Numbered from the stretch's first letter, positions 11,804 to 56,216 are shown. The stretch: 64,000 nt of DNA from a virus (IMGVR_UViG_3300028832_000001:36007-100006), one strand, 5' to 3'. Program-made: numbers and translations. Notes: generated from the letters alone by a model not told the origin.

Positions 11804-13051
11804 TTAGATAGCACCGTAGTCAGTTAATCTTGCAGCAACATCTAAGTAATTTTCGTAAGATTCGTTGATTAATTCTTTATTTTCTTCAACTTTAGTAGAT
11901 TCTTCAACTGGTTCTGTTTCAGCAACTGGAGTGTTATTAACTTGAACTTCTAAACCATTTGTCTGGAGAGCAGTTGTTGCACGTCTTAATGCAGCAGGAG
12001 TACCAGTAATATGAACAATAGAACCATCAATTTCAGAAGTTACGTTAACATTCGGGAAGATTTCTTCAGCAGCAATCTGTGCTTCTTCTGCATTAACAAA
12101 TTCAATCCAGAGATCATTAGAAGATGCTGTAGCAGCTGGTGCTTCAGGTGTAATGAATTCACCATATTCACCAATAAGATCTTCCAATTCTTCTTGTTTC
12201 TTCTTAATTGTAAGAGAACCATCTTCATTTTCAGTAAACTTAATGTTACCATTATTAAGTCTGATTCTTACACGAGTTAATGCACCTGGAGTTGCTGGCT
12301 TAAAGATAGATACCTTACCAGAAGCAACAGTATTAACTCTGTTTCTACCGACAGCGATTTCGAGCTTAGTATATAAACCTTCAACCTTTTCTCTTTCTTC
12401 TGCAGTAAGTTCATCTGCACGAGCCATTAATTGGTCAATACGGTCCTTGATAAGGTCAGCATTGGAACCACCACGGCTGAAAGAAGTAATAGAATTTTGA
12501 ATATTTCTAATGAGTGTTTTAGCATCAAGTGCGCTATCGTCACGAGAATGAGTAGTTCTTGCAAGACCTTGTTCAGTCCAACCGCCTTGCGGAATACCTT
12601 CACCGCCTTCAACACACTGATTAATATATTCTCTTTCTTTCTGTAATTCTTCGAGATATTCTTGATTACCTGTTTCTGGGAATACTGCAAGTGCTGCATC
12701 GAAGTTTGCTAAAAGAGTTTCAGCAGTATTCTGAGACATACCCTTACTGTTAGCACTCTTAAAGTCATTTTCAACCTTAGAAAGAGCTTCAGCAACACCG
12801 AATGTCTTAGCTTGACCTCTAACTGTCAAATCAACAGTTCCTGCATCTTCAAGACCTGCGAAAGAACCAGTATAACGACCATTAAAACGAGCCATTTCGG
12901 AAAGAATCTGATATGACTTTGTTTTTGTAGCACGACGTGATTCTAAGGATTCCATCAAGCTCTTAACAGTATTCTTAATATAGCCATCAAGATTATCATT
13001 GACAGAGTAACCAACAGAACCTAAAATTTTCTTTGCTTCATTTAATTTCAT
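11804..13051 (-). CDS. Putative prohead core/internal protein with EAxxI...GY motif
   Basis: Starts MKLNEAKKILGSVGY; LMESLE, ILSE and LINE sites; TATAAATA at 13083-13090 and AGGAGA SD. Confidence 0.6.
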   Translation of the reverse strand: MKLNEAKKILGSVGYSVNDNLDGYIKNTVKSLMESLESRRATKTKSYQILSEMARFNGRYTGSFAGLEDAGTVDLTVRGQAKTFGVAEALSKVENDFKSANSKGMSQNTAETLLANFDAALAVFPETGNQEYLEELQKEREYINQCVEGGEGIPQGGWTEQGLARTTHSRDDSALDAKTLIRNIQNSITSFSRGGSNADLIKDRIDQLMARADELTAEEREKVEGLYTKLEIAVGRNRVNTVASGKVSIFKPATPGALTRVRIRLNNGNIKFTENEDGSLTIKKKQEELEDLIGEYGEFITPEAPAATASSNDLWIEFVNAEEAQIAAEEIFPNVNVTSEIDGSIVHITGTPAALRRATTALQTNGLEVQVNNTPVAETEPVEESTKVEENKELINESYENYLDVAARLTDYGAI

Positions 13052-13095
13052 TTTAAATTCTCCTAATTTAATTACTTTATATTATTTATAAAGAA

Positions 13096-13497
13096 TTATT
13101 CAGAAATATTATTAATATTGAATTTTCTGACTTTTTTATAATTAACCGCTTCGTTATGTGAAACAATATCGAATTTTGTTCTATGCGGGATGATTTCGTT
13201 CATATCATTAATAGAAATCATATGCCATTTTGTTAGCCATAATGCAATAGAATTGCGTCTTTCTATATCTTCTAAAGATACATTACCAAAGCCATGATAT
13301 CCATTCTTATTAGGAGCTAATGTAAATAATTGTTTAAAATGAACTAAATAATACGTATCAAACTGTTTTAAAAGGTGACAAGATTGATAAATTATCTTAT
13401 TTTTCTTATCAACAATTCCCATTCTTGACAATGTTTCTTTAATAACATTTGGATCTACCAGTAGCTTCACTTCCAATAATCTGTTTGTCTGGTACAT
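13096..13497 (-). CDS. regA: Translational repressor RegA
   Basis: KETLSRMGI...IYQSCHLL...YYLVHFKQL...EDIERRNSIALWLTKW aligns with T4 RegA. Confidence 0.9.
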   Translation of the reverse strand: MYQTNRLLEVKLLVDPNVIKETLSRMGIVDKKNKIIYQSCHLLKQFDTYYLVHFKQLFTLAPNKNGYHGFGNVSLEDIERRNSIALWLTKWHMISINDMNEIIPHRTKFDIVSHNEAVNYKKVRKFNINNISE

Positions 13498-13923
13498 TTA
13501 ATATTCCTCTGGTTTCCAATCAAATTCTTTCATTTCACTTAAGAATAATTTATTAGCAACAGCTTCTGGTTCAATTTCATCAGTTATTGAACTAGTAAAG
13601 AATGTCATTAAAATATCTTTAACGCTTGTATATCTAACAAGTTCAGATTCAGATAATTTCGAGAAGCCATAATCAGCATAACCATTATTACTATAAATTA
13701 AATCCATTTCTTTTTTAAGTTTAGTAATATTAAGGTATTTACTATTGTAAATTAAATACTTATTATTTTTAACTTCTCTAGCTGTCCAAATAGTAGGTTT
13801 TGCAGTTTTAACTACTTCTTCAAGCGTTAATTCTTTATCAGCTTTACGAACAACTGTATCTTTTATCTGTTCATCAGTCGCTTTATTTTCTTCTTCTACT
13901 AGATATTGCTTAAAATTAATCAT
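13498..13923 (-). CDS. Hypothetical protein with T4-type capsid-targeting N-terminus
   Basis: MINFKQYLVEE; ATG lies 5 nt after TATAAATA. Confidence 0.65.
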   Translation of the reverse strand: MINFKQYLVEEENKATDEQIKDTVVRKADKELTLEEVVKTAKPTIWTAREVKNNKYLIYNSKYLNITKLKKEMDLIYSNNGYADYGFSKLSESELVRYTSVKDILMTFFTSSITDEIEPEAVANKLFLSEMKEFDWKPEEY

Positions 13924-13939
13924 ATAATTATTTATAAGT

Positions 13940-13967
13940 AAAAAAGGAGTATTAAAGTACTCCTTTT
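13940..13967 (-). terminator. Intrinsic terminator
   Basis: AAAAGGAGTA/TACTCCTTTT stem after the gp26-like paralogue 2. Confidence 0.75.
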
Positions 13968-13986
13968 TCTTTATTTTTTGTTAAAA

Positions 13987-14778: not shown

Positions 14779-14849
14779 ATTTTCACCTTTAATATTTAAA
14801 CAATTTTATATATTTATAAATTTTAAATATCTATCTATACACACGTTCA

Positions 14850-15155: not shown

Positions 15156-15217
15156 GAATCAAATATAGATTGATTGTAAAATTTTGTAAACTAAAGAATA
15201 CCAAAAAGTCTGATTTT

Positions 15218-17275: not shown

Positions 17276-18133
17276 TTACCAACCCTCAAAAGGATCATAG
17301 TATTGTGGATTCTCTTCTTTAATTTCTTCAGACTTATATATGACATTAGTCGGAACATTATCTTTTGGTTCATTGTTAATATCAGTATCAGTCATTGCAT
17401 CTGTATTTGTAGATAACATATCAGATTCAGGTGCAACTTCACTTGTCTTGTCTGTTGTAGAAGTAGAAGTATCAAGTTTAAATGTTTCTGCAAGTTCTGC
17501 ATACTTTCTAAATTCATCCATTGGGTCACTATTAACATTGAGTTCATCAACGTTTTCATGATTGTTGTGCCAGACACGTAACTTGAATGTATAAGTAATT
17601 GGAGTAGACAAGAATGTCGTCTGTTCAGCAAATTCCTTTACATTAACAACTTCATAATAAGTGTCAGAATATTCGATATAAACAATATCACCAATCTTTG
17701 GAACCTCAGCTTCGTAAATATCCTTCATATCTGGATATGAAAGTTGAGATGCTTCATAGAAATGTTGAACTGTGCATTGACAAGTTATAATTTCTGGAAA
17801 AATCATACCCTGAAGTTCATATTGTCTCTGCATTGTTGGGATAGATTCAGTATACATCTTTAATAAGAATCTACGTTCTACATTTGCCAATGGGTCTTCA
17901 CCATATAATCTGTCTTTTTTAGTATCAATGTTTTTTAAATAATATTGAACTTCAAATCCAAACATATTATATGCTTCAGAAGAAAGTTCAGAAAGTAATG
18001 CTGCTTCTGCTTTATAACAGTCATTTTCCATACTATCGAAATAACGAGGAGCAGTCCAGTCCTTACCTTGGACTGAACAGTTACCCTGTTTAAATAGTTT
18101 AGAAAATTCAGATGCATATGATTGAACTGCCAT
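17276..18133 (-). CDS. gp14: Neck protein (T4 gp14-like)
   Basis: EAYNMFGFEVQYY...RLYGEDP...PKIGDIVY...YYEVVNV...YTFKL. Confidence 0.8.
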   Translation of the reverse strand: MAVQSYASEFSKLFKQGNCSVQGKDWTAPRYFDSMENDCYKAEAALLSELSSEAYNMFGFEVQYYLKNIDTKKDRLYGEDPLANVERRFLLKMYTESIPTMQRQYELQGMIFPEIITCQCTVQHFYEASQLSYPDMKDIYEAEVPKIGDIVYIEYSDTYYEVVNVKEFAEQTTFLSTPITYTFKLRVWHNNHENVDELNVNSDPMDEFRKYAELAETFKLDTSTSTTDKTSEVAPESDMLSTNTDAMTDTDINNEPKDNVPTNVIYKSEEIKEENPQYYDPFEGW

Positions 18134-18137
18134 ACAT

Positions 18138-18149
18138 TATTTATAAATA
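18138..18149. promoter_or_regulatory. Palindromic bidirectional late promoter TATTTATAAATA
   Basis: Two overlapping TATAAATA boxes within a 16-bp perfect palindrome (18136-18151) between divergent genes. Confidence 0.8.
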
Positions 18150-18173: not shown

Positions 18174-18758
18174 ATGGATAAAAAATACGGAAAAATCTTT
18201 AAAACTGTTCCAAAACAATCTTTTAGCGATTATTTTTCTACTAAAAAAAGAGAAATAAATGACGAAGAAAGATATAATGAAGCAGTTAGAATTATGCATG
18301 AACATCGATATGCTATTTTAAACGAAGGTAAAATGGCACAATGGATTGCTGGTGTTGCATTGTCATTAGGACTTATTACTAATGCCATGGCAAGAGATTT
18401 TAATGCTCAAGCTTCATCTGGATATACAAGTCAGAAAGCATCTACTTCTATATTTAATAAAAATTTACAGAAGAATTTTAATATGGAATCTGACGTTCAG
18501 TTGACTGACACGATGGTTCAAAATATTGTTGATAATGTCGCTAAGAAGATTGCAAATAGAATGGTTAAAGAAAATAAATATGAAGAAGATGAATTACTTG
18601 AACTTCCAGAATGGAAAGATGCAGTTGAATTCTATAAGCAACTTGTAAAGGCTGATGAAAGTTTAGGTAATATGTTTTCTCGTCGTTTAGATAAAGCACT
18701 AACACAAAGTATTAGAATTGCTCCTAACATACAACGATATGTTTTAAAGAATGGTTAA
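18174..18758 (+). CDS. Putative packaged protein with a cryptic signal-peptide-like segment
   Basis: SFSDYF...EAVRIMHEHRYAILNE|GKMAQWIAGVALSLGLITNAMA|RDF. Confidence 0.6.
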   Translation: MDKKYGKIFKTVPKQSFSDYFSTKKREINDEERYNEAVRIMHEHRYAILNEGKMAQWIAGVALSLGLITNAMARDFNAQASSGYTSQKASTSIFNKNLQKNFNMESDVQLTDTMVQNIVDNVAKKIANRMVKENKYEEDELLELPEWKDAVEFYKQLVKADESLGNMFSRRLDKALTQSIRIAPNIQRYVLKNG

Positions 18759-30032: not shown

Positions 30033-30413
30033 TTATTCCTTAATATGTAATAACATTGTTTCAGGGACATTATAGACTATATATCCTGGTGGATTAGTTT
30101 TATTTCCCTTAATAATTTTTAGTGTAAATAAATTTATACTATTTATTGGATCTGACTGACCAATTATTTGATAAATACATTCATCGCCATTTACATTACT
30201 TGTAACTTTATCATTTACTTCAAATGGACGATATGTTTCTTCAATTTCTACCCCATTAGTAGATTTTTCAATATTTTCGGAATTTATAGTTTTTGCATTC
30301 TTAACGGCAACAGTAAGATCACGTGCAATCCATTCAGGACAGTTCTTACTACTTACTACTTTTTTAATTCCATTTAATAAAATATTTAGTTGTTCTTTAC
30401 GTATATCTTCCAT
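30033..30413 (-). CDS. Hypothetical protein
   Basis: 126 aa; TAATG overlap. Confidence 0.65.
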   Translation of the reverse strand: MEDIRKEQLNILLNGIKKVVSSKNCPEWIARDLTVAVKNAKTINSENIEKSTNGVEIEETYRPFEVNDKVTSNVNGDECIYQIIGQSDPINSINLFTLKIIKGNKTNPPGYIVYNVPETMLLHIKE

Positions 30414-31000
30414 TAGTCACTACTCAAATTGTCTTCATCTTTAAATAATATCTTTAGAATATGAAGCTCCTTTTTAAACTTCTGTAAACAGTCAGATATT
30501 GTTTTGTCAAAGTCATTAAGATGAGTACTAATTTGTCTTGCGACACGGCCCGCACTAGCAGCTCTGGTTGGCGGATAGTTATATGATTCAAAGCCCTTCA
30601 TGAAATCTGCACTTGGTTTTGATAAATCAGGAAGTTCTTTCTTAAAAATTTTTGCATAAAGTGTCCAACATGCATTTTCGAAACTTTCGATAGTATTAGC
30701 AAGTTCGACGCCTTCACGTAATTTACGTTTTTTCTTCTTTTTCTTCTTTTTCTTTGGAATCTGATTTAACCAATATCCAGGGTGATGAGCATCAGGAACG
30801 CCTTTATAAAGTGGATTAACACTAAATGGAGAGCGTTGATATAATAATCCCATACGTTGAGGACAGCAACCTTTGCAGTCACCGCCATGTGGAATACCTT
30901 GATCAGCACCAAGCGGAGCACCAACACCGATTCCAAAATCCTCGTCTAAAACCTTATATCCGTTTTTCTTAAGAACTTCTACAGCTTCTTCTAAAGTCAT
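30413..31000 (-). CDS. Putative internal head protein carrying a copy of the major capsid N-arm and a poly-Lys tract
   Basis: MTLEEAVEVLKKNGYKVLDE|DFGIGVGAPLGADQGIPHGGDCKG (21/25 identical to gp23 aa 54-78); KKKKKKKKKRKLRE; TATAAATA at 31033-31040. Confidence 0.7.
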   Translation of the reverse strand: MTLEEAVEVLKKNGYKVLDEDFGIGVGAPLGADQGIPHGGDCKGCCPQRMGLLYQRSPFSVNPLYKGVPDAHHPGYWLNQIPKKKKKKKKKRKLREGVELANTIESFENACWTLYAKIFKKELPDLSKPSADFMKGFESYNYPPTRAASAGRVARQISTHLNDFDKTISDCLQKFKKELHILKILFKDEDNLSSD

Positions 31001-31006: not shown

Positions 31007-31501
31007 CTAGCTAATCTTTAAATTATACTTATTATTTATATCAGTTACGTAAGAATTCCATTTATTTCCATGCGCATAGTTCTCTAAATACAGAATTTTA
31101 TTGAATAAATCTGTATTTTCTTTATTATATGCATCAAAAGCTGCAGCGATTTCGCCACCAGTAAGTTCAAGGAATATCTTATAATGTAACATTTCATGAA
31201 GCATTGTTCTTTCTAAAGCTTCATAAGGTCTTTTATGAGTTTTGGAGATTTCAATCCTTGGATTCTTTAAAATTTTATTTTCAAAGTCAATATCAAATTT
31301 GAAATAACCATTGACTTCAGAACTATCGATGATATTGACTGGAATTTTAATCAAAGAATTATCAAAATACATGTTATTACATGCATCAAAAATTTTGCTT
31401 AAATATTTTTCAGTCAATTCAAAATGTTTACTAAAAAGATTCATAATCTCGCCATGATGATTTAAGGAAATCTGTTCTATCCTTTGTAAATGTTTTGCCA
31501 T
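31007..31501 (-). CDS. SprT-like zinc metalloprotease
   Basis: FDACNNMYFDNSL...NGYF...IEIS...TMLHEMLH...HG..W; true start may be Met20 (31444). Confidence 0.75.
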   Translation of the reverse strand: MAKHLQRIEQISLNHHGEIMNLFSKHFELTEKYLSKIFDACNNMYFDNSLIKIPVNIIDSSEVNGYFKFDIDFENKILKNPRIEISKTHKRPYEALERTMLHEMLHYKIFLELTGGEIAAAFDAYNKENTDLFNKILYLENYAHGNKWNSYVTDINNKYNLKIS

Positions 31502-45066: not shown

Positions 45067-48000
45067 ATGGATTTTAACATATCTGAAAACAGCACAGACA
45101 CACGTTATTTTTTAACTGTTGAATTTACTCAGCCAATTTTGCCATTTTTAACTAATGGAACATTTAATATATCAATTAAAGATATGTTAATGATGACTAC
45201 AATAAACATTGATAGTTTAGATGTTTTACTTAATCAATATGGTTTGACAGTTCCTTATAGAACTTCCATTCAAGATCAGTTAGATAATTCTTTAATTAAT
45301 AATAAAGGTATTGTTATAACAATTCCTAATGATAATACCTTATCTTTTACAATGATTCCTCGTTGCATGGAAATAAACACCAATAAGATTATTGGTTTTT
45401 ATGATTCTATGATAAATATTCATGCAGAATATAATGCTGTAACAGTAGATGTAAATACTACTGCAAAATTATATCCAAGATTAGTAAGATCTGATACTTT
45501 AGATAAATATGCACCTGAGCCAGATCCAGTATTACCATCTGATGTAGATAGATGTTGTTATACATATCCGGATATTTATCAGGATAGTACAAAGAAAATT
45601 ACGCATAATGTTGTTTACAATACAGATTCTGAATTTTATGCTAATTCAACAACTTCTGCAAATACCCCACCTGAAGAAGTTCCATCTTATGTTAGTAAGT
45701 TAAGTGCATATTTTACAGCAGAAGAAGCTGACGGTTTTATTCCAGACTGGAAGAATGCTGTTTCTTGGTTATATAATGATAGAAATAAATCTCATGTTGA
45801 TGTTGATTGGGAATGTTTAGATGAAGAACCAACCGTCTATAATACATATGTTGTAGGTAATTCAGATGATGTTGAAATTCAAGAAAATTATTGGTTAACT
45901 ATTTCTGCATATCAGATTAATCAATATGTTTTTGCTAAAAATTTACCACCAAATAGATATGAAAATAAATTGTTCTTTGGATTGAGTGCAGAACATATCG
46001 ATATTTATCCACCACTTGAGCCAGTTCATGAACTTTATATGCCAGATACTCTTATAATTACACCTGTAAATCCAACATATGTATTTGTTGGTGATGATAC
46101 TCATACAGAATATCCATGTCCAACAAGAGTATTGGAAATTAATGATTATAGTTTACCACCTATTGAACAAGATGGTGTTGAACATTTTGAAATAAATTTG
46201 GATCCAAATGGTAATGGACATAATGCATTCTTATTTAGTGATCCACAATATAAAAATATCGTAGCTTGTAATTTAAATGTTCGTTATTTTGATGTTAATA
46301 ATAATATGATTCCTCATGGTGCATTACCTTGGGACTCATTATATGGGTCAAATGGTTATAATTTACCTGATATTACAGCAACAAATTCTATAATTGATGT
46401 TTCTATTAGTGCTATAGAAAACGTATTATTACATTATGATAATATTGATCATGCTGTTGTATCTGCTCATATTGAAGTTGAATTAGATAGTGATTTAGTT
46501 GATGAAGATTCAGAAACACATAAAGTACCAATCGAAGAAGCACCATATTGGATAAGTAGAGATTATGCACTTACAACAGGTTGGAGATATATTGATTCTG
46601 TTCAAACAATTTGGAATAAGTATGAACATCCAGCACCAGTAGTAGAATATCGTGCTCCTGCACAAATTAATATGAATATTCTTCCGCAATATGCATCGGT
46701 TAATAATCCATCTTGGCAGACATCTCCAAATCGTATTTTAAATGTAAATGCTAATACTCCAGACGATATTGAATTTGGTAGAGAATTGCTTACAATTTCT
46801 ATTAATCCAAGTAATTTGAATAATTTTATTACTAGTGCATCTGATAGATTAGATGTAACATATTATATTAATTATCCAGGTTCTCATAGAGGTGAGGATG
46901 CAACATTAACAACTACATTTGGTACTGAACCAGTTCCTGAAACATATACACTTAGTGTCCCTGCTGATACAAGTGAACCATTAACTGCAAATATTAATTT
47001 ATCTGGTGAGTTAGATGAAGATGCAACAATTACTATTGCAGCTGAACTTGTATTATATGATCCAAACGGAACAAGAGAACAAGAAATAAAAGATAGATAT
47101 CATGTTGACTTATCAATGCTTCCAGATTGGAATAAGATTCCAGCAGTTACTTTGAATTGGACTAGAAGATATACAGATCCATTTATTCCAGACCCATGGA
47201 CTGAATTTGATAAGTATGTTATCTTTACACAGTCTGAATTGGATATTGATAATTCTTATATTGGTGTTAAATCAATTACTGCACCATGTGTTAAGGTTAA
47301 TAATGGTTCTATAGTTGAATCTGAATTATTCATTACTGGTAAAAAGAAAGTACAAGATACTACTAGCGCATGTCTTGCTTTTATTAATGCTAATACAACA
47401 AAAACATTGGCTGATGGAAGACATATAGATTATACTAGTGCTACGGAAGCAAGAGAAACTACAATATATGGGGGTCAATTACGTGGTTCTGTTAATGCAT
47501 TAAGTGATTATAAAGTTCATATTGCGGATGATGCGGATTATCCAGAGTTTACTAATACAAATCCGTCTTATATTGGAAATATCGTAGATAACGATGGTTA
47601 TCTTGAAGATTTAATTATGCCTATAGAAGAACCACCAGAATTAGTTCAATTAGATAATATGGAATTTATTGGTGAAGAATCTATTATCAGAGATACTGAC
47701 GCAACAATTAATTTAGATGCGAGTGTTAATAATCATTATGATGTATTACAATGCGGTGATAGAGGTATAATTAATTTAAAGAAAGGAACTTATTACTTTA
47801 ATTCTGTTACACTTGGTGTTGGAACACAAATTAATATTGAAAATAATCTTGGTGATAATGAATTCGTAAGAATATTTGTAAGGGGTGATTTCAATGCAGC
47901 AAATACAATCGATATTAATAATCCTAATGTAAATTTGAAATCATTTATGATTTATTCTCATGAAGGTAATATTGATTTTGCAGCAAAAACTTCAAATAAT

Positions 48001-48171
48001 TTCAACTATGGTATTGCAGTTGCACCAGGAAAACCAGATCCAGATACTGGAAAACCAATGGCTGGAACTGGTGAAATAAGATTCCATAACTCTGTTATTT
48101 GGACTGGTGCATTATGGGCACAAAAAGTTGATCTACAAGGTAACTGTGAAGTTCATTCTTATGGAAATTAA
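45067..48171 (+). CDS. Large virion surface/fibre-like protein with C-terminal beta-solenoid (DUF7305-like)
   Basis: KGTYYFNSVTL...VRIFVRG...FMIYS...GIAVAP...WTGALWAQKVDLQG; TATAAATA at 45044-45051. Confidence 0.55.
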   Translation: MDFNISENSTDTRYFLTVEFTQPILPFLTNGTFNISIKDMLMMTTINIDSLDVLLNQYGLTVPYRTSIQDQLDNSLINNKGIVITIPNDNTLSFTMIPRCMEINTNKIIGFYDSMINIHAEYNAVTVDVNTTAKLYPRLVRSDTLDKYAPEPDPVLPSDVDRCCYTYPDIYQDSTKKITHNVVYNTDSEFYANSTTSANTPPEEVPSYVSKLSAYFTAEEADGFIPDWKNAVSWLYNDRNKSHVDVDWECLDEEPTVYNTYVVGNSDDVEIQENYWLTISAYQINQYVFAKNLPPNRYENKLFFGLSAEHIDIYPPLEPVHELYMPDTLIITPVNPTYVFVGDDTHTEYPCPTRVLEINDYSLPPIEQDGVEHFEINLDPNGNGHNAFLFSDPQYKNIVACNLNVRYFDVNNNMIPHGALPWDSLYGSNGYNLPDITATNSIIDVSISAIENVLLHYDNIDHAVVSAHIEVELDSDLVDEDSETHKVPIEEAPYWISRDYALTTGWRYIDSVQTIWNKYEHPAPVVEYRAPAQINMNILPQYASVNNPSWQTSPNRILNVNANTPDDIEFGRELLTISINPSNLNNFITSASDRLDVTYYINYPGSHRGEDATLTTTFGTEPVPETYTLSVPADTSEPLTANINLSGELDEDATITIAAELVLYDPNGTREQEIKDRYHVDLSMLPDWNKIPAVTLNWTRRYTDPFIPDPWTEFDKYVIFTQSELDIDNSYIGVKSITAPCVKVNNGSIVESELFITGKKKVQDTTSACLAFINANTTKTLADGRHIDYTSATEARETTIYGGQLRGSVNALSDYKVHIADDADYPEFTNTNPSYIGNIVDNDGYLEDLIMPIEEPPELVQLDNMEFIGEESIIRDTDATINLDASVNNHYDVLQCGDRGIINLKKGTYYFNSVTLGVGTQINIENNLGDNEFVRIFVRGDFNAANTIDINNPNVNLKSFMIYSHEGNIDFAAKTSNNFNYGIAVAPGKPDPDTGKPMAGTGEIRFHNSVIWTGALWAQKVDLQGNCEVHSYGN

Positions 48172-48204
48172 AAAAAAGAAAACCGGTTTTAAAACCGGTT
48201 TTTT
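48171..48204. terminator. Bidirectional terminator, ACCGGT family copy 3
   Basis: AAAAAAAGAAAACCGGTTTTAAAACCGGTTTTTT. Confidence 0.8.
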
Positions 48205-48223
48205 AATTTAAAATTTTTAATTA

Positions 48224-48598
48224 TTAAACAGCTGCAGGTGCTGGAACATCATCGTGTTTGCAACATTTACAGCTGAAAATTTCAGTATCTGGACCGACCT
48301 TAGATGGTGGAAGCAACTTATGAGTATGACCGTCACCTACTGGTTGGCAAACACCGTCTTTAATAAAGTGAACGTGACCACCGACCATAGTAATCGGAGT
48401 TTCTTTATTAATATTTGATGGTTCGTTTAATGCATCGCTAGTTCTACCATAGCCAGTTTCATCAAAAATCCAGTATTCGTGATGATGTGGACCCATAGCT
48501 GAAGAACCTTCAAAAACGTCAGTCACACCGATTTGTGAAGTATTTTCATTTAAAGCCAATGCACATTGTTCATTTACATAATCTGCATATTTTTTCAT
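48224..48598 (-). CDS. His-rich (HxH repeat) putative metal-binding internal protein
   Basis: MKKYADYVNE..LNE CTS-like start; PHHHEY, GHVH, GHTH, CKCC. Confidence 0.6.
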   Translation of the reverse strand: MKKYADYVNEQCALALNENTSQIGVTDVFEGSSAMGPHHHEYWIFDETGYGRTSDALNEPSNINKETPITMVGGHVHFIKDGVCQPVGDGHTHKLLPPSKVGPDTEIFSCKCCKHDDVPAPAAV

Positions 48599-48622
48599 AG
48601 TAATTCCTTTTAATCGTTATAT

Positions 48623-48634
48623 TATTTATAAATA
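48623..48634. promoter_or_regulatory. Palindromic bidirectional late promoter TATTTATAAATA
   Basis: Between two divergent small genes, each with an SD. Confidence 0.8.
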
Positions 48635-48651
48635 AATATAAGGAGAAAGCC

Positions 48652-48924
48652 ATGAAAGATATTAATGAAGGTTTTTTTAAAGATAAATATCAGAGATATA
48701 AAGCAGCAGTTATTAGTATTTTAAAGTCTCGTGGTATTAATGCTTTGGCATTAGGACATTATTTAGACGCATATTGTAGAGATTTTTTTGCAGATAACAT
48801 GTCTGCTGACGATTGTGCTACATCTATTGCAGAAAATAGACTTGCAAAAGAGAAAGCAATGGTTGCAGAAGCAATGCGAATTATGCGTGAACATGGGTAT
48901 AGGGTAAAGCCATACAAGAAATAA
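48652..48924 (+). CDS. Small protein with EAxxI...GY motif
   Basis: MKDINE|G start; C-terminal EAMRIMREHGYRV; AAGGAG SD. Confidence 0.65.
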   Translation: MKDINEGFFKDKYQRYKAAVISILKSRGINALALGHYLDAYCRDFFADNMSADDCATSIAENRLAKEKAMVAEAMRIMREHGYRVKPYKK

Positions 48925-49061
48925 TATAAAAATATATCAATAATAGACCAACTATAAGATATAGTTGGCTTTTTCTGTTTAAATTTTAACAAAAAAATCA
49001 ATTTTTAACCTATAAATAAAATATAAAGAATAAAATTCTATGTTAAATTGGAGGAATCAAA

Positions 49062-50039
49062 ATGGATAAAATTCTTGAAACCCTTTCCCAAAAATTCTCA
49101 GCAGAAGAATTGAATGAGGTCAAAAAGGCTATTGAATTCACTGTTGATGAAAAGGTAAAGGCAAAGTCTGAACAAGAAGCCAAGATGATTGCCAAGAAAG
49201 CTGATGAATTTTGTCAGAAGAAGATTAAGGAAGCTGTTGAAAAGAAGACTGCCGAAATCGAAGAAATTGCTAACAAGTTCTGCGAAGAACGTTGTGAAAA
49301 GTTGAGCAAGGAAGCCGATGCAAAGGTTGAATCTTATAAGAAGAAACTCGAAGAAGCTTCAGAACAGTATATCCTTGAATATTTCGATGAGAAGTTCACA
49401 GAAAAGTACGGGCAAGAACTCGAAGCTATCGAAGAAAAAGTTATTACAGGCTTGGATAAGTATCTTGAATATAACATCAATGAAAAGATTGGTCCGGAAA
49501 TGATTCAGAAGACTGCATTGCAAGAAACCTGTCAGCCGATTGTTGAAGAGTTCATTCACATTCTTGAAGACAGATATGTTGCACCTAACACCACTGGTTC
49601 TAAGAGAATCCGCGAATTGAAGGCAGAAAATGCTGAAGTCCGTGCATCTCTCCAGAAGCAGCTCGATGAAAACATGCGTCTCGCTGAATTGGTCGAAAGC
49701 ACTGGTAAGAAGTCTTTGATTTCTGAAAAGGTTGCTGACCTCTCTGCAGATCAACGTCTCAAGGTTCGTAAGTTCTTCAAGGAAAAGAGCTTGAATGAAA
49801 CTAAGAAGGATATTGATGCTTATATCGAAATGATCCAAGAACAAGCTGACTCTATCAACGCTATGCGTTATGAAAGAGAACAATTGTTTGAAAGTCATGA
49901 AAAGCCGGTTCGCAAGTCTCGCTATGTCGAAGACCGCACGAACGAAACTATCACTGAAAAGTTTAAACCAAAACGCCGTGAATTGAGCGCTCGCGAACGC
50001 ATGATGCTTGGTTCCGCTAACCTAATTGATGAAAATTAA
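49062..50039 (+). CDS. gp22: Prohead core scaffold protein
   Basis: LSQKFS...IEFTVDEKVK...LDKYLEY; coiled coil; directly upstream of gp23; TATAAATA at 49011-49018. Confidence 0.85.
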   Translation: MDKILETLSQKFSAEELNEVKKAIEFTVDEKVKAKSEQEAKMIAKKADEFCQKKIKEAVEKKTAEIEEIANKFCEERCEKLSKEADAKVESYKKKLEEASEQYILEYFDEKFTEKYGQELEAIEEKVITGLDKYLEYNINEKIGPEMIQKTALQETCQPIVEEFIHILEDRYVAPNTTGSKRIRELKAENAEVRASLQKQLDENMRLAELVESTGKKSLISEKVADLSADQRLKVRKFFKEKSLNETKKDIDAYIEMIQEQADSINAMRYEREQLFESHEKPVRKSRYVEDRTNETITEKFKPKRRELSARERMMLGSANLIDEN

Positions 50040-50126
50040 CTGAAATGCGAAAAATCTAATTTTTCGTTTATAAATAAAATATAGAAATTCAGAAATAAAG
50101 TAATTTTTTAATAGGAGAAAAAACAA

Positions 50127-51446
50127 ATGAAGATTACAAAGACACAAGCCGGTATGATGGAACGCTGGGGCAAGGCTCCAGGCGGACTTTCAGTCGCTGG
50201 CATTAAGGACAATCTTGTCCGTTATAATACTGCACGTCTTTTGGAAAACCAGCAGACTAAGAACCTCGGTTCTGAACTCTTGACTGAAGATTTTACTCAG
50301 GGCGTAGGTGCTCCACTTGGTCTTGACCAGGGTATTCCACACGGTGGTGACGCAAAGGGTGTTTTCGCACCGATTTCTTTGGCACTTGTCCGTCGTGTTT
50401 TCCCACAGCTTTTCGCTAACGTCCTCGTTGGTGTTCAGCCATTGACTGGTCCTGTCGGTCTTGCTTTCGCACTCCGTTACATTTATAAGACCAATAACCC
50501 GAACGAACTCGTTGAAGCCGCATGGAAGGCAGTTCCTCGCTTCTCTGGTTATACCGGTTCTACCGCTAACACAGATGGCGAATGGGATGCTGGTACTGGT
50601 GTTGATACTCAGTCTGCTGAAGGCTGGAAGATCACTGGTCCGACCTTCGGTTCTGATGACCCGTCTGTAAGCCGTAAGATGCCAGAACTTGGTCTTATGC
50701 TCAGCCGTCAGTCTATCGTTGCTAAGACCCGTAAGCTCGCTGCTAGCTTCTCTCTCGAATCTGCAGCTGATATCAAGGCTATGCAGGGTATCGAAATGAT
50801 GACTGAAATGATCAACGTTCTCCAGCAGGAAATGACTGCAGAAATGGACCGTGAAACAATCGGCCGCTGCAAGAGCCTCTGTACTCCACGTGTTTACAAC
50901 AAGGCTGATCAGACCCTCGCTAACAACGATTCCTTCATTGGTACAAACTCTCAGGAACGTTTCGGTCTCATCATCACTCACATCATGAAGGGTGTTAACG
51001 ACATTCGTACCGCTACTCGTCGTGGTGCTGCTAACATTGCAGTCGTCTCCCCAGACGTTGCTACTGTTCTTCAGGTTGCTAACCCATGGTTCACCAAGGT
51101 TGCTCATGAAGTTAACGGTTCTGCAGTTACTCCGGAAATGGGTACTCTTAACGGTGTTGTTAAGGTCTTCTGTGACCAGTATGCTGTTGACGAATTCGGT
51201 GCAAACGACAACGGTGAAGTTCTCTTAGCATTCAAGGGCTCTAGCCTCTATGATGCAGGTGTTATCTTCTGCCCATACGTTACCGGTGTTGTCAATCAGG
51301 CTATCGATCCTAACGACTTCTCTCCAAGAGTCGGTATCATGAGCCGTTATGGTTTCGCACACAACATGCTTGGTGCTGAAAACTATTATCGCTTGCTCAA
51401 GTTCAACGGACTCTTCGCAGACGCTCCAGAGTCTCTCGTTTGGTAA
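50127..51446 (+). CDS. gp23: Major capsid protein
   Basis: LLENQ...LTE|D...LVRRVFPQLFA...GVQPLTGPVGLAFALR...KTRKLAASFSLESAADIKA...FCPY...P.VGIMSRY; TATAAATA at 50069-50076. Confidence 0.97.
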   Translation: MKITKTQAGMMERWGKAPGGLSVAGIKDNLVRYNTARLLENQQTKNLGSELLTEDFTQGVGAPLGLDQGIPHGGDAKGVFAPISLALVRRVFPQLFANVLVGVQPLTGPVGLAFALRYIYKTNNPNELVEAAWKAVPRFSGYTGSTANTDGEWDAGTGVDTQSAEGWKITGPTFGSDDPSVSRKMPELGLMLSRQSIVAKTRKLAASFSLESAADIKAMQGIEMMTEMINVLQQEMTAEMDRETIGRCKSLCTPRVYNKADQTLANNDSFIGTNSQERFGLIITHIMKGVNDIRTATRRGAANIAVVSPDVATVLQVANPWFTKVAHEVNGSAVTPEMGTLNGVVKVFCDQYAVDEFGANDNGEVLLAFKGSSLYDAGVIFCPYVTGVVNQAIDPNDFSPRVGIMSRYGFAHNMLGAENYYRLLKFNGLFADAPESLVW

Positions 51447-51468
51447 TCGATATTGAACAAACAGATTT

Positions 51469-51499
51469 AAAAATACAGGTCTTTATGGCCTGTATTTTT
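51469..51499 (+). terminator. Intrinsic terminator
   Basis: AAAATACAGG/CCTGTATTTT stem. Confidence 0.8.
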
Positions 51500-51520
51500 A
51501 TTTAATAATAAATAATACAT

Positions 51521-52147
51521 ATGAGATTTAAGGATTTTTACAATTTAAACGAAAGCATTTATGCAAATGTTTCTAAGCTTAAAAAACTATTTAATCTTGC
51601 ATTAGATGGCGGAAACTTAGATGATTATCTTAGGGTTGATAGATATGCACCAGAAGAATTAATACTTATTTCACCTATGATTTTAGATGAAATAACAGAA
51701 GAAGAAGTTATAAAGATTTGTGATTCTGCTGGTTTCTATTGTAGTATTCATCACAATGATAAAGGAAAACCTCTTCCTTTTGACCCTATCTATATTACAC
51801 CAAAGAACCAAAAAGAACCGCTAAACATTGGCGCACAAGAATATTATCATTGTTCGTTAGCTGCAAATTTAGATAAATCTGGTTTACGTTTAAAATCAAG
51901 AAAGGTTGATAATGATTATGATGTATATGATGATAGAATTTATCTAGTTCCTGTTGCATTAGCTGGCGATCCAAATGAAATAATAGACATGGTTGCATCA
52001 GAACATAATTGCGATAAATCTGAAGTTTATGTTTATAAAGTAACTTTACCTAAAGGATATGAAGTCTATCAAGACCCAACTAAGCGTGAAGCAGTATATG
52101 TAACTAATGCAATTCCACCTAAATACATTACAAAAATAAATTTGTAA
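51521..52147 (+). CDS. ADP-ribosyltransferase-fold (Tpt1/KptA-like) protein with capsid-targeting N-terminus
   Basis: MRFKDFYNLNE; YYHCS...SGL...RIYL...YKVTL...YQDP...VYVTNAIPPKYI. Confidence 0.55.
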   Translation: MRFKDFYNLNESIYANVSKLKKLFNLALDGGNLDDYLRVDRYAPEELILISPMILDEITEEEVIKICDSAGFYCSIHHNDKGKPLPFDPIYITPKNQKEPLNIGAQEYYHCSLAANLDKSGLRLKSRKVDNDYDVYDDRIYLVPVALAGDPNEIIDMVASEHNCDKSEVYVYKVTLPKGYEVYQDPTKREAVYVTNAIPPKYITKINL

Positions 52148-52191
52148 ACTTTTATACAAGAATTACCAAAAATTTTTTATAAATAAAATAG

Positions 52192-52215
52192 GTGTATGGG
52201 AATGGTCCCGTGCAT
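52192..52215 (+). promoter_or_regulatory. 5' UTR RNA hairpin after a late promoter
   Basis: GUGUAUGGGA-augg-UCCCGUGCAU with three G-U pairs, just downstream of TATAAATA (52178-52185). Confidence 0.55.
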
Positions 52216-52238
52216 AGGAAAATTTAGGAGAAATAACC

Positions 52239-52622
52239 ATGAAACGTAGAGAAGACATTTACAATTTGGGTAATGATTACTTCCAGAAGGCTGAAGTTTA
52301 CTTCCGTACAACTTCCGCAGAAGTTGAAGCAGTTAGCGGTAAGAGCCCAGTTTATTCTGATGGTATCTATCACTATACTCAGGAACCGGTTTACGAACTC
52401 TCTGGTGGCACTAGTGCTCTCAACAAGAGAATCTTCAACGTTCTTCCACAGAAGGATTGGACACCAGTTGACTTCGAAGGTGCTGATACATTCAGCGCTA
52501 TCAATGATGCTTCTGCTGTCTTCAGCAAGGATTATGCAACTGGTATTGTTGTTGACCTCAACGGCGGCGACACTGCTAAGAGCGACTGGTCTAAGACCCC
52601 AGGTGGCAAGACTGACAAGTAA
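52239..52622 (+). CDS. Small, probably abundant virion protein (capsid decoration candidate)
   Basis: 127 aa; gp23-like codon bias (TTC/AAC/GAC/AAG/CTC); strong AGGAGA SD; own promoter and terminator. Confidence 0.6.
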   Translation: MKRREDIYNLGNDYFQKAEVYFRTTSAEVEAVSGKSPVYSDGIYHYTQEPVYELSGGTSALNKRIFNVLPQKDWTPVDFEGADTFSAINDASAVFSKDYATGIVVDLNGGDTAKSDWSKTPGGKTDK

Positions 52623-52646
52623 TCATTAACAGATTATAAACAATTT

Positions 52647-52678
52647 AAAAAGCCTTAGAGTAAAATCTAAGGTTTTTT
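52647..52678. terminator. Bidirectional terminator
   Basis: AAAGCCTTAGA/TCTAAGGTTTT. Confidence 0.75.
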
Positions 52679-52982
52679 ATTTTAATAATTCTTCAATTTT
52701 TTTATCAACTTTATAATTTTCTTTTTCCATCATACCGTCCATTGCCCAGGAAATATCTTTTTTAAATTCTTCTTCATTAAATACATATTTTTTGAACAAG
52801 CGTGTATAACCAGCATTAAAGTGAATATAACATATTAGCTCGTTAGATATTATAGAAATGTTACCAAATAGGTAATGACGATTAAAGCCAATAAGATACA
52901 TATATTGAGAAATACGACAAGAATAAAGCTTATATTTCTTTATTATGTCAATAATATCTTGTTCAACATATATTCTCTGCAT
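52677..52982 (-). CDS. Hypothetical protein
   Basis: 101 aa, Y/I-rich. Confidence 0.5.
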   Translation of the reverse strand: MQRIYVEQDIIDIIKKYKLYSCRISQYMYLIGFNRHYLFGNISIISNELICYIHFNAGYTRLFKKYVFNEEEFKKDISWAMDGMMEKENYKVDKKIEELLK

Positions 52983-52994
52983 ATTTTATATATT

Positions 52995-53022
52995 AAAAAA
53001 CCGGAACGTTAATTCCGGTTTT
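52995..53022 (-). terminator. Terminator related to the ACCGGT family
   Basis: AAAACCGGAA/TTCCGGTTTT. Confidence 0.75.
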
Positions 53023-53041
53023 ATTTTAATGTAATATTTTA

Positions 53042-53695
53042 TTATCGTCTATTTCTATGATAAGCAGACTGTCTAGTACCTGCTGCTAAGTCCATGTTAG
53101 AACCACCGAACATAGCGCCTTGTAATACAAAAAGAACTGCAGTTGAATTTTTTGCAGCTTGAATTCTGGCACTTAATGTCTTGTAATACTTATCACCAGT
53201 TACTTCGCGAGCCTTTTCAAGAAATTCTGCCTTTGCAACATCAAGACCGACTTCATCAGCAAGCTTTGTAAAGTAACCGTCTTTAATATAATCTGCACAA
53301 AGTTGAGAAAGCGGAGTTCCTTCAGCAGTTCCGAAACCTTCATCTAATGTCATAGTTTCGTCTAAAGTCATGCCTTCTAAGTCGAGGTCATCTTCTAAAG
53401 CTTCGTCAACTTTGTCTTTCTTCTTTGCCCAGAAAGGAACAAAATCGGATTTCTTACCTTTCTTCTTACCTTTCTTTTTCTTGCCACCACAACCGCAGCA
53501 ACCTTCATCAAGTTCATCATCGTCTTCAATTTCTTCGTCTTCACGAATTAATTGATAACCTGCTTCTTCGGCAATACGCTTTGCCTCTTCGAGCTCTTCA
53601 CGAGCAACACGTTGACGGAAAGATTCGCCTTCTGAATTCTTGACGACGTGATAACCTTTACCTTCTACAATTTTTTTAGCTTCTAAAAATGTCAT
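53042..53695 (-). CDS. Putative internal protein with two EAxxI...GY motifs and a K/C-rich patch
   Basis: LEAKKIVEGKGY, EEAKRIAEEAGY, LDE|GCCGCGGKKKKGKKK, repeated LDE sites; two TATAAATA upstream. Confidence 0.65.
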   Translation of the reverse strand: MTFLEAKKIVEGKGYHVVKNSEGESFRQRVAREELEEAKRIAEEAGYQLIREDEEIEDDDELDEGCCGCGGKKKKGKKKGKKSDFVPFWAKKKDKVDEALEDDLDLEGMTLDETMTLDEGFGTAEGTPLSQLCADYIKDGYFTKLADEVGLDVAKAEFLEKAREVTGDKYYKTLSARIQAAKNSTAVLFVLQGAMFGGSNMDLAAGTRQSAYHRNRR

Positions 53696-53799
53696 ATTAA
53701 AGTCCTTTAATTGTTATTTATATTATTTATAACTTCATAATTCCGAAAAATTTAAATATTAAACTATAAATATATTAATAGAATATAAGGAATTTAAAT

Positions 53800-54465
53800 A
53801 TGGAAGCTAAAAAGTTATTAAATGAAGCTGCTATTGCCGAATCAAAGATTCTTAATGAAGAAACTAACGGCGTAAAGCACATGTATATTTCTGGTCCTTT
53901 CCTTCAGGCTGTAGATACTAACAGAAACGGGCGTATCTATTCTAGGGAAATTATTGAAAGAGAAGTTAATAAGTTCCAGGGTCTTATTGAATCTCGTGAA
54001 GCTGTTGGTGAACTTTCTCACCCAGAATCAATCGAAATTAACCCAGACCGTGCAGCAATCTTGATTACTGAATTAAAGATGGATGGTAATCTTGCAATCG
54101 GTAAGGCTAAGGTTCTTACTACCCCATGTGGAAAGATTCTCGAATCTCTTTTGAATGATGGCGTTCGTATGGGTGTTTCCTCTCGTGGAACTGGTAACTT
54201 GACTGAAGGTAACATGGTTGCAGATGACTATTCTCTTGCAACAATCGATGCGGTTTATATGCCATCTGCTCAGGTTGCTTATGCTGATGCAATGTATGAA
54301 TCTGTCCAATATGCATCTAAGTGGGTTCTTAATGAAGCAACTGGTCTCTATATTGAAAAGAGAGAAAAGGTTGACGAAGCTACTAAGGCATTCAATAAGA
54401 AGGTTGACGATATTGGTTCTAAGATTATCGTTGAAGCCTTTAAGGATTGGTTAAAGGCAATCTAA
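53800..54465 (+). CDS. gp21: Prohead protease
   Basis: YISGPFLQA...NRNGRIY...GELSHP...GKAKVL.TPCG...GVSSRGTG...D.V..PS; TATAAATA at 53765-53772. Confidence 0.95.
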   Translation: MEAKKLLNEAAIAESKILNEETNGVKHMYISGPFLQAVDTNRNGRIYSREIIEREVNKFQGLIESREAVGELSHPESIEINPDRAAILITELKMDGNLAIGKAKVLTTPCGKILESLLNDGVRMGVSSRGTGNLTEGNMVADDYSLATIDAVYMPSAQVAYADAMYESVQYASKWVLNEATGLYIEKREKVDEATKAFNKKVDDIGSKIIVEAFKDWLKAI

Positions 54466-54484
54466 AATAAATTTACATAAAATA

Positions 54485-54513
54485 AAAATAGAGGTTTTAA
54501 AACCTCTATTTTT
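54485..54513. terminator. Bidirectional terminator
   Basis: AAAATAGAGGTT/AACCTCTATTTT. Confidence 0.8.
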
Positions 54514-55580
54514 TATATGGATGCTTTTTCACAGAATACGTTATGGTCCCAATATTGAATTGCGTTCGTAAACCATTCAACTTGTTCCATAGAAATAGGT
54601 GTATATCTATGATAATCTGTTGCTAAGTCAAAACCGTTTTTCTTAGCAAATGCTCTTCCATGAATGTGACCATAAAGAACAATACTATCTGGATAACGAG
54701 GATGAACCTTACCTTCATCCGGTTCGTGAATTACATGATAAGTCTTTTTATTATGTTCAAACGTAGCCTTAGATACAACGTCTATATGCCTATTCTTTAG
54801 CTCAGAAACAGCCTTATTAACGTCTGTTTCTATCTTCCTATCATAATTACCCATGACCAAAATAAGCTGCTTATAATTCAAATCAGATAGTATATTTTTC
54901 ATCGTAGAGACATCACCGAAGTCACCAGCATGATAAACAATATCGTTCATCGTAACAGTCTTATTCCAGTTGCTAATCATTTCCAAATCCATTTCAAAAA
55001 GATTAACAAATGGTCTTCTGGAATAATTCAGAGTTCTTTCTTGAGAGAAATGTGTATCAGAAGTGAAGAACATATCTGTAGGAGACTTTTCAAGTTTCTT
55101 GACAACATGTTTCAAGAGTTCTTCAAGATTATTCCAATACTTGATTTTCTTCATATCAAGTCTGCACTTGAGATAATCATTCTTTTCTGCCCAATCAGGA
55201 AAACCAGAGTAAATACCAGGCTTGTCGAACCAGTCACCAAATTCAATATTGGTTGTAAATGCAGGATGTTTCTTTTGAATATCTCTTGCAACCCAGAAGA
55301 CAATAGCAGAAGCTTTCTTCATTGCGATATATTCCCAAGTGGTTTGCTTGAGCAATGCTTTATCACCATACTTTTCACGAAGCTTCATAAAATCCGGATT
55401 TGTAGGGGTAATAACTTTACCAGTAAAACTTAACTTTTCGAGAATTTCAAATGCTTCTTTTCTCCAGTCATCTTCATAGTTTTCTCTAGGGCAAGGACCA
55501 GCTAGGAAGATAGAATTATTCATATCACCAGATAATTGTTCTTCTGGATCCATGTCAGTATTAACTTTTATTATATTCAT
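54513..55580 (-). CDS. Fusion of a nucleoside 2-deoxyribosyltransferase-like domain and a calcineurin-like metallophosphoesterase
   Basis: SIFLAGP...WR...QTTWE...IVFW...TNIEFG, then FFTSDTHF...HAGDFG...GNYD...LYGHIH; start moved to MNIIK (GAGGA SD; CTATATTTG at 55605-55613). Confidence 0.8.
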   Translation of the reverse strand: MNIIKVNTDMDPEEQLSGDMNNSIFLAGPCPRENYEDDWRKEAFEILEKLSFTGKVITPTNPDFMKLREKYGDKALLKQTTWEYIAMKKASAIVFWVARDIQKKHPAFTTNIEFGDWFDKPGIYSGFPDWAEKNDYLKCRLDMKKIKYWNNLEELLKHVVKKLEKSPTDMFFTSDTHFSQERTLNYSRRPFVNLFEMDLEMISNWNKTVTMNDIVYHAGDFGDVSTMKNILSDLNYKQLILVMGNYDRKIETDVNKAVSELKNRHIDVVSKATFEHNKKTYHVIHEPDEGKVHPRYPDSIVLYGHIHGRAFAKKNGFDLATDYHRYTPISMEQVEWFTNAIQYWDHNVFCEKASI

Positions 55581-55613
55581 ATTATCCTCTAATAATTCGT
55601 AATACAAATATAG

Positions 55614-55637
55614 AAAAAGACTGTCAAGTGACAGTCT
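55614..55637 (-). terminator. Intrinsic terminator overlapping the next promoter's TTGACA
   Basis: AAGACTGTCA/TGACAGTCTT. Confidence 0.7.
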
Positions 55638-55661
55638 TATGTAAATTTTATTTGACTTTTA

Positions 55662-56216
55662 TTAATATAATGGACCGCGGCCGCGTTGCATGTTGTTGAA
55701 ACTTTGCATTGCCATATCGTCGAGGAATTCATCAGCTTCTTCAGGACCATATTCGTAAGATTCGTCGTCATTTTCAATATCGAAATCATCAATATCATTA
55801 TAGACTTCATTATCTGGAATATTGTTCGGATCAGTTTCCCATTCAATATAACCCTGGAAATTGCAACGTTCGCAACCTTCACCACCGCAATCAGGACAGA
55901 TATTTACTTCTTGGTCATCACAACATTCTCTATGATCAGCTGAGCAACAGTCATCACCATCACAGTTGAGTCCGCATTCCTTCAAAAGATAATCTTGGAA
56001 TTTCTTGGAATCAAAAACCGGATGCTTGCCAGAATACTTCTTAGATTCCTTAACAAAACGTAAACCGTTTGCATTAACGATTCGCTTTGCTTCAGCAAGC
56101 TTTTCTTCTGGGGTCATTTCTTTTTCTTTTGATTCAGAAACTTGCTTCTTGTCAGTCTTTCTAACAAGATGATAGCCATTCTTCTGAACAATCTTAACTG
56201 CGTCTTCAAATTTCAT
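55662..56216 (-). CDS. Protein with two EAxxI...G motifs and a Cys-rich (DnaJ-like CxxCxGxG) zinc module
   Basis: EDAVKIVQKNGY, AEAKRIVNANGL, CPDCGGEGCERC; acidic tail. Confidence 0.65.
   Translation of the reverse strand: MKFEDAVKIVQKNGYHLVRKTDKKQVSESKEKEMTPEEKLAEAKRIVNANGLRFVKESKKYSGKHPVFDSKKFQDYLLKECGLNCDGDDCCSADHRECCDDQEVNICPDCGGEGCERCNFQGYIEWETDPNNIPDNEVYNDIDDFDIENDDESYEYGPEEADEFLDDMAMQSFNNMQRGRGPLY

Follow-up and report, generated by a model that had tools for sequence, protein, structure and literature searches.

In this study, we analyzed a window of 64,000 nucleotides (positions 36007-100006) of the viral contig IMGVR_UViG_3300028832_000001, which comprises 415,750 bp, carries direct terminal repeats and has a G+C content of 34%. 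A peptide of about 20 residues, in the following called the tag, was found on six proteins encoded in the window and on about 27 proteins of the whole genome, which are unrelated apart from the tag and mostly unannotated. We consider it somewhat better than an even chance (roughly 55%) that the tag works as this lineage's version of a capsid targeting sequence (CTS). In phage T4, the CTSs are the N-terminal propeptides of IPI, IPII, IPIII, Alt and gp24, which are removed by the protease gp21 (Mullaney and Black 1996, reviewed in PMC9026906 and PMC3012670).

The tag family and its late promoters

Eight copies in six scattered proteins of the window had been listed in the original prediction. 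Translation of the respective open reading frames (ORFs) recovered all of them as quoted. The six proteins are termed P0001 to P0006, and a hydrophobic-x-Glu sequence at the end of a copy is called the Glu site:

12992..13051, minus strand: tag copy, residues 1-20 of P0001 (gene 11804-13051, 415 aa)
18270..18326, plus strand: internal tag copy, residues 33-51 of P0002, ending I-L-N-E (gene 18174-18758, 194 aa)
30941..31000, minus strand: tag copy, residues 1-20 of P0003, ending V-L-D-E20 (gene 30413-31000, 195 aa)
48859..48915, plus strand: C-terminal tag copy, residues 70-88 of P0004 (gene 48652-48924, 90 aa)
53636..53695, minus strand: first tag copy, residues 1-20 of P0005, without Glu site (gene 53042-53695, 217 aa)
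53540..53596, minus strand: second tag copy, residues 34-52 of P0005, ending L-I-R-E (gene 53042-53695)
56157..56216, minus strand: first tag copy, residues 1-20 of P0006, without Glu site (gene 55662-56216, 184 aa)
56046..56102, minus strand: second tag copy, residues 39-57 of P0006, ending F-V-K-E (gene 55662-56216)

The copy in P0001 has no Glu site directly after its Gly-Tyr pair, the nearest hydrophobic-x-Glu downstream being L-M-E at residues 32-34. Searches of Pfam, PHROGs and NCBIfam assigned none of the six window carriers to a family.

For the genome-wide scan, every ORF of the 415,750-bp genome with 40 aa or more was searched with hidden Markov models (HMMs), using an independent E-value (i-E) below 0.01 as cut-off. 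The HMM built from the eight window copies alone, a search that had been proposed for the genome and its relatives, gave 17 matches, nine of which lie outside the window, and it gave none in the reversed proteome or in any of 10 shuffled proteomes. The iterated HMM converged on 23 copies in 21 proteins, and about 27 carriers were obtained when weaker copies were counted. Most of the carriers are encoded outside the window, where many form tandem gene clusters. The tag family is real, non-random and bigger than the six proteins to which it had been limited at first.

The consensus reads M-N-L-x-E-A-K-x-[IL]-L-K-x-N-G-Y-x-[LIV]-[IL]-K-E and mostly begins at residue 1 or 2, while a minority of the copies is internal or C-terminal. 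In a profile search of 1.84 billion representative proteins, queried with a 45-residue alignment at a cut-off of E<=1e-3, 201 clusters were found, and the tag was located at residues 1-3 in 136 of the 147 representatives analyzed. The description of the motif as usually N-terminal is thus appropriate for the majority and does not cover the internal and C-terminal copies. An all-against-all BLASTP comparison of the carriers with the tag masked gave no pair at E<0.01; therefore, the carriers are unrelated apart from the tag, as had been assumed for the window proteins.

At the residues E5, A6, L10, G14 and Y15, conservation reaches 90-100% over hundreds of clusters. Since the coding sequence of the tag is AT-rich and lies at gene starts, one might think of conservation at the nucleotide level, as of a translation-start enhancer or a recombination sequence. 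This explanation is hardly credible, because synonymous codons vary at the conserved residues (Gly14: GGT 6, GGA 5, GGC 7, GGG 1; Leu10: TTA 6, CTT 11, CTC 2), which argues for selection on the peptide and not on the DNA and largely refutes it, and because copies are also found inside proteins and at C-termini.

Upstream of the window carriers, the T4-type late promoter box TATAAATA was found at the following positions:

13083..13090, minus strand: late-type promoter box TATAAATA upstream of 11804-13051
18142..18149, plus strand: TATAAATA box upstream of 18174-18758
31033..31040, minus strand: TATAAATA box upstream of 30413-31000
48627..48634, plus strand: TATAAATA box upstream of 48652-48924
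53715..53731, minus strand: two TATAAATA boxes with overlapping range upstream of 53042-53695
56673..56680, minus strand: TATAAATA box upstream of 56229-56657

Hence, as had been claimed for most of the carriers, five of the six genes have their own box, located 25-40 nt before the start codon. For the remaining gene, 55662-56216, co-transcription from the box at 56673 (minus strand), one gene upstream, is most likely, in agreement with the promoter named for it before. Genome-wide, an own TATAAATA box precedes 16 of the 27 tagged genes compared with 107 of 695 genes overall (Fisher p 1e-7). At the operon level, 24 of the 27 tagged genes belong to TATAAATA-driven units compared with 250 of 695 overall (p 1e-8), so that the HMM does not hit non-late genes equally often, an outcome that had been named as a possible refutation. 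Judged by their promoter sequences, the tagged genes are expressed late, as are the proteins bearing the T4 CTS.

The tag end, the prohead protease and the head genes

T4 gp21 cleaves after L/I-x-E, and Asp at the position of Glu blocks processing (PMC9026906). For site statistics, 127 non-redundant N-terminal tags from metagenomes were used. A hydrophobic-x-Glu sequence was present in 108 of them, with Glu at Tyr+3 in 19, at Tyr+4 in 17 and at Tyr+5 in 72 cases, whereas hydrophobic-x-Asp occurred in the same registers in only 14 cases. In the remainder of the same proteins, Glu and Asp are about equally frequent (9.5% and 9.2%), and either tripeptide is found at about 2.6% per position. The residue following Glu is mostly S, D, G, A or N. 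Both the preference for Glu and the shifting register are predicted by a gp21-type site, whereas a purely structural strand would hold one register and accept Asp. The frequent hydrophobic-x-Glu sequence after the motif, which had been noted for the window proteins, is thereby supported for the metagenome tags and only in part for the window itself, as described below.

The window also encodes a protease and head proteins of the T4 type:

53800..54465, plus strand: gp21-type prohead protease (Pfam Peptidase_S77, 98.7 bits)
50127..51446, plus strand: gp23-type major capsid protein (233 bits)
39435-41057: portal
17276-18133: head-closure protein
49062..50039, plus strand: candidate gp22-like scaffold, 325 aa, Glu/Lys-rich and helix-rich, directly upstream of the capsid gene, proposed by position and composition only

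The phage is a distant T4 relative; compared with cultured T4-like cyanophages, its capsid protein reaches no more than 33.5% identity. Both a gp21-type protease and T4-type head proteins, with which a CTS goes together, are present. The tagged genes are interleaved with the head genes: 53042 is divergent from the protease gene, 55662 lies two genes past it, and 48652 is found just upstream of the scaffold candidate.

Full-length and mature chains of T4 gp23 in the Protein Data Bank (PDB) differ by 65 residues, from which it follows that T4 gp23 is cut after F-L-T-E65. The sequence L-L-T-E54 of the capsid protein from the window stands in ungapped register with this site, and in both proteins 36 residues extend from the cut to the end of a conserved V-R-R. 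We infer that the capsid protein is cut at maturation after L-L-T-E54 (LLTE|DF, compared with FLTE|AE in T4). In the protease, the sequences K-L-L-N-E9, a second x-x-E20 (K-x-x-x-E20) and W-V-L-x-E179 are shared with 17 homologues, with L-L-N-E9, E20 and V-L-x-E179 invariant, and resemble self-processing sites; they parallel the terminal processing sites discussed for T4 gp21 (PMC9026906). The tag ending matches the presumed capsid cut LLTE|D as well as LLNE and VLNE of the protease itself. By its sequence, it fits an (L/I)-x-Glu site of the prohead-protease type. It was also observed that the N-terminus of the protease, MEAKKLLNE, is like the first half of the tag (EAKKLL) and then continues at once with a cut site, as in a short T4-style propeptide.

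One carrier connects tag and capsid protein directly:

30869..30940, minus strand: P0003 residues 21-44, DFGIGVGAPLGADQGIPHGGDCKG, a near copy of the presumed mature capsid N-terminus (BLASTP)

P0003 reads tag-VLDE20|DFGIGVGAPLGADQGIPHGGDCKG, and the capsid protein reads LLTE54|DFTQGVGAPLGLDQGIPHGGDAKG. In the BLASTP alignment of both proteins (E 4e-13, 27 of 49 residues identical), the match crosses the cut junction. P0003 may mimic the N-terminal arm of the capsid protein and in this way become inserted into the inner capsid face. Beyond the approximately 24 capsid-like residues, P0003 has a Cys cluster, a Lys-rich stretch (residues 83-94, 11 Lys and one Arg) and a C-terminal part that is unrelated.

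Four independent lines, namely the capsid register, the protease's own sites, the junction mimicry and the site statistics, indicate that the end of the tag is probably a protease site. A complex prediction for the catalytic region of the protease (residues 21-180, 18-row alignment) and tag residues 1-32 (22-row alignment) gave a score of 0.00 in both runs; it was made without controls and counts neither for nor against binding.

Modularity and structure of the tag

One cargo domain of 58 residues (GFFKDKY...RDYF...DCA) was seen with the tag in three arrangements. In two phages from IMG/VR (L080, L093), the tag is N-terminal and the junction reads GYELIDE|GFFKDKY. The same domain in P0004 has a C-terminal tag, and its N-terminus is cut down to MKDINE|GFFKDKY (match to L080 with E 1e-16), while in P0180 the domain begins after MLDE| and is followed by two tags downstream (E 3e-16). 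The untagged N-termini MKDINE| and MLDE| hold the same junction as the tagged forms. On this sequence comparison, the tag is a portable module that appears usable at either end of one cargo domain, in line with the modularity proposed originally. Also, proteins with two to four tags exist that have a Glu site after each.

Both copies are retained in the orthologues of the two-tag protein P0005. These orthologues (P0016, P0018, P0022) vary in length from 157 to 315 aa due to large insertions and deletions between the tags and a conserved C-terminal domain, and their central region is hypervariable. The NCBI entry of the orthologue P0018, whose gene lies on a contig of 417,694 bp, calls it a hypothetical protein from a Methanobrevibacter sp. 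metagenome-assembled genome; this contig is probably a relative of the phage that was binned into an archaeal genome. A phosphoesterase (Metallophos) gene (54513-55607, minus strand) neighbors the two-tag gene 55662-56216, and the same pairing was found in a distant phage contig (L027:9041-11413), where the protein encoded after Metallophos has 470 aa and four tags.

Among the orthologues of P0001, which are as low as 24-37% identical, 31 alignment columns are invariant, and 8 of these belong to the tag, the best-conserved part of the family. In the AlphaFold2 model of P0001, residues 1-63 have a predicted local distance difference test score (pLDDT) below 50 and a folded core begins at about residue 64, so that the tag lies outside the fold. 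A Foldseek search of this model against BFVD and PDB gave no match at E<=1e-3, and a look-up in the ESM Atlas gave no usable match; the C-terminal half of the model resembles generic tandem ferredoxin-like units. The AlphaFold2 model of P0006, calculated with 20 orthologues, is mostly disordered (mean pLDDT 49.6). It shows the second tag with low confidence as a helix (residues 36-49) and a strand (residues 52-55), a weak hint that each tag may form a helix plus a strand.

The tag could also be a generic, easily evolved N-terminal helix-strand cap without common function, which recombination or the birth of genes has spread among new small genes of AT-rich jumbo phages. It does resemble common alpha-beta elements: the PASTA domain (PF03793) and the C-terminal domain of ribosomal protein L7/L12 (PF00542) show a local likeness to the helix-plus-strand segment, of the type xEAkxxLexaGfkV. 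The matches are weak, with E 0.01-0.02 for single window proteins and 36 bits summed for one multi-tag protein. Membership in PASTA was rejected, as only about 26 of 64 positions are covered (profile about 8-37), no single stretch exceeds the threshold and the rest of the domain is absent; the tag is a look-alike. In addition, a Pfam search with 100 other carrier representatives yielded no domain, which would be expected if the genes were young orphans. Conservation of five residues at 90-100% and of the tag as the best part of the highly diverged P0001 family speaks against such a cap, which also leaves the strict late-promoter association and the Glu specificity unexplained. We regard it as distinctly improbable.

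A further explanation, rather unlikely in our view, is that the tag is an autonomous docking or oligomerization handle for another partner, such as a phage chaperone, a tagged protein or a host factor, which has nothing to do with capsid loading and in which hydrophobic-x-Glu is merely the end of a beta-strand. Such a handle could well be placed at either protein end and in tandem, as the tag is, and would fit the tag-like N-termini in phages without detectable Peptidase_S77. The low-confidence model of P0006 points in the same direction: it has only two strands, which belong to its two tags and therefore must pair with each other. A handle does not predict the excess of Glu over Asp of about 8:1, nor the register shifts that keep hydrophobic-x-Glu, nor the copy of the capsid cleavage junction behind the tag of P0003, and it leaves unexplained why multi-tag genes cluster around those for the protease and the capsid protein.

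In another reading, the tag would be more than a cleavable N-terminal propeptide, namely a position-independent, self-contained docking module, in which targeting helix and cut site are separable, and cargo would be recruited by strand pairing from tag to tag with multi-tag hubs encoded next to the protease (53042, 55662 and relatives with three or four tags), while one carrier would mimic the mature N-terminal arm of the capsid protein to enter the inner face of the shell. We put this forward only tentatively and hold it to be unlikely. If it applied, giant T4-like phages would use a new, programmable way of loading a proteome of at least 25 proteins.

Proposed function, cargo and distribution

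If the tag is the CTS of this lineage, its two parts would have different tasks. The first part (L3, E5, A6, K7, I/L9, L10, then N-G-Y) would form a short amphipathic helix that docks on the prohead core, and the second part (Y-x-hydrophobic-hydrophobic-x-Glu) would be an extended stretch offering a gp21-type cleavage site. Tagged proteins would be made late and recruited into the assembling prohead, where the Peptidase_S77 protease would then remove the tag after Glu. The mature cargo would stay in the head, and some of it would probably be ejected into the host. In T4, gp22, gp67 and gp68 are core components that are cut into pieces; by analogy, the multi-tag proteins encoded beside the protease gene (53042, 55662) are probably such core components.

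The likeness to the T4 CTS lies in a short N-terminal peptide on otherwise unrelated late proteins of one phage, in an ending in hydrophobic-hydrophobic-x-Glu, and in the presence of a gp21-type protease and T4-type head genes. The length of the tag also falls in the range of T4 propeptides, which have 10-20 residues (PMC5694885). Unlike the T4 CTS, which is found on about five proteins, the tag is found on about 27; it also occurs internally, C-terminally and in tandem, is longer with a helix-turn-strand build, has many acidic cargoes, and is known from sequence alone. In the giant phages SPN3US, phiKZ and 201phi2-1, long propeptides of head and ejection proteins are removed by gp21-like proteases (PMC5694885, PMC9026906). 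Similarities to these jumbo phages are that dozens of head-internal proteins are processed there after Glu, and that in the ejection protein gp47 of SPN3US the propeptide is followed by a transmembrane segment, as hydrophobic segments follow the tag in P0002 and in a carrier with an SLT domain. In P0002, this is a membrane-span-like segment at residues 57-73 directly after the tag, and in the SLT carrier (L021, outside the window) a Gly/Ala-rich hydrophobic stretch in the same place. In contrast, the propeptides of SPN3US, phiKZ and 201phi2-1 mostly have 80-160 residues and no common consensus, whereas here one compact consensus of 20 residues is reused. Encapsulin cargo-loading peptides are likewise short and portable and bring diverse cargo into a shell of the HK97 fold; they usually sit at the C-terminus and bind to the shell protein itself, and no protease removes them.

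Several observations weigh against a CTS function. The T-even CTS has the sequence MKTYQEFIAE, and beyond the final hydrophobic-hydrophobic-x-Glu the tag has no likeness to it; therefore, homology cannot be demonstrated, and we regard the tag as an analogue or distant variant. The Glu site is missing in three of the eight window copies (the copy of P0001 and the first copies of P0005 and P0006) and in the C-terminal copy of P0004, and 17 of the 127 metagenome tags have none at the expected place. Many carriers are acidic; the internal proteins of T4 are basic. Carrier charge was considered as an indicator and discarded, because the predicted isoelectric points of the mature parts range from 4.1 to 9.7 and give no signal either way. 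No cultured phage with the tag was found in the phage collection, in which tblastn with a consensus-like tag gave one chance-level match only. Tag-like N-termini (22-30 bits) occur on coiled-coil proteins in complete phage genomes of 72-80 kb in which Peptidase_S77 was not detected, and a tag-like start is also present on a small, folded-looking family that continues with GYFVDNLWHV and has no Glu site. The helix-Gly-aromatic-strand pattern itself is generic, with the partial matches to PASTA and L7/L12 described above and look-alikes in bacterial helix-turn-helix (HTH) proteins.

Finally, radical-SAM genes are found at a distance of up to about 3.5 kb from six of the 27 tagged genes, which may point to a different function: the tag could be a recognition leader for a modifying enzyme such as a phage radical-SAM enzyme, in the style of leader peptides of ribosomally synthesized and post-translationally modified peptides (RiPPs). 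The radical-SAM genes are located at 149.9, 180.1 and 182.0 kb of the genome and the tagged genes at 151.0-153.1 (four genes), 177.05 and 183.3 kb. We judge a modification leader to be very improbable. The remaining 21 tagged genes are far from any radical-SAM gene, the six near ones represent three independent loci, and adjacency to an enzyme gene is thus not consistent; no conserved modifiable residue follows the tag, and Glu-site statistics and junction mimicry point to the protease. The CTS function is the one we prefer, with one change to the original prediction, in which the tag was a second signal beside a T4-type one of 10 aa: the tag is more likely the lineage's own CTS version.

Assuming this function, the tag would be a sequence barcode listing the proteins that are packed, and probably injected, by an uncultured gut phage family with genomes of 290-435 kb. 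The barcode would cover about 27 proteins here and at least 200 metagenome protein clusters, almost all without a known domain. In T4 and phiKZ-like phages, cargo of this kind includes anti-defence and host-takeover proteins, and the tagged proteins would be a defined pool for finding new ones. The targeting principle of T4 would scale from about five cargoes to dozens, with a signal movable to either protein end, and, as in T4, the compact tag could be used to load foreign proteins into large capsids.

Only one carrier of this genome, an SLT lytic transglycosylase (genome 271509-272354), has a recognized domain; the PHROGs that this domain matches bear the annotations endolysin, lytic tail protein and internal virion protein. 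In another phage contig (L047:5700-6887), a 396-aa protein with a tag ending V-I-M-E contains a SprT-like HExxH metalloprotease domain (Pfam E 1.5e-8) and is a second tagged cargo with a recognizable enzyme. The S77 protease is encoded by all near-complete relatives with 11-20 tags; two relatives of this kind, with 411 and 424 kb, and a fragment of 291 kb carry 10-20 tags each and all have the protease gene. A megablast search of window positions 48000-57000 against the phage collection gave no match.

Among the phages with tag-like N-termini, a 73-kb phage without detected Peptidase_S77 encodes a coiled-coil protein (L061:503-1426) with the tag-like N-terminus MTFEEAKKILKKEGY and a degenerate second copy. 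An ORF exceeding 2,567 aa (L061:2853-10553) follows downstream of its gene, and a PHROGs search with the neighboring genes did not identify the module. Proteins of the GYFVDNLWHV family have 70-127 aa, follow the pattern M-x-x-x-EAKxxLxxxGYFVDNLWHVxDV and are encoded on phage contigs of 11-206 kb (L091:6553-6933, L094:3364-3654, L043:9516-9731); Peptidase_S77 is encoded in both contigs checked (L094, L109), and their tag-like start seems to belong to a folded domain.

Among the structural genes of the window, an ORF of 286 aa (32251-33111, minus strand) shows a weak match to a homing-endonuclease PHROG (E 2.7e-6).

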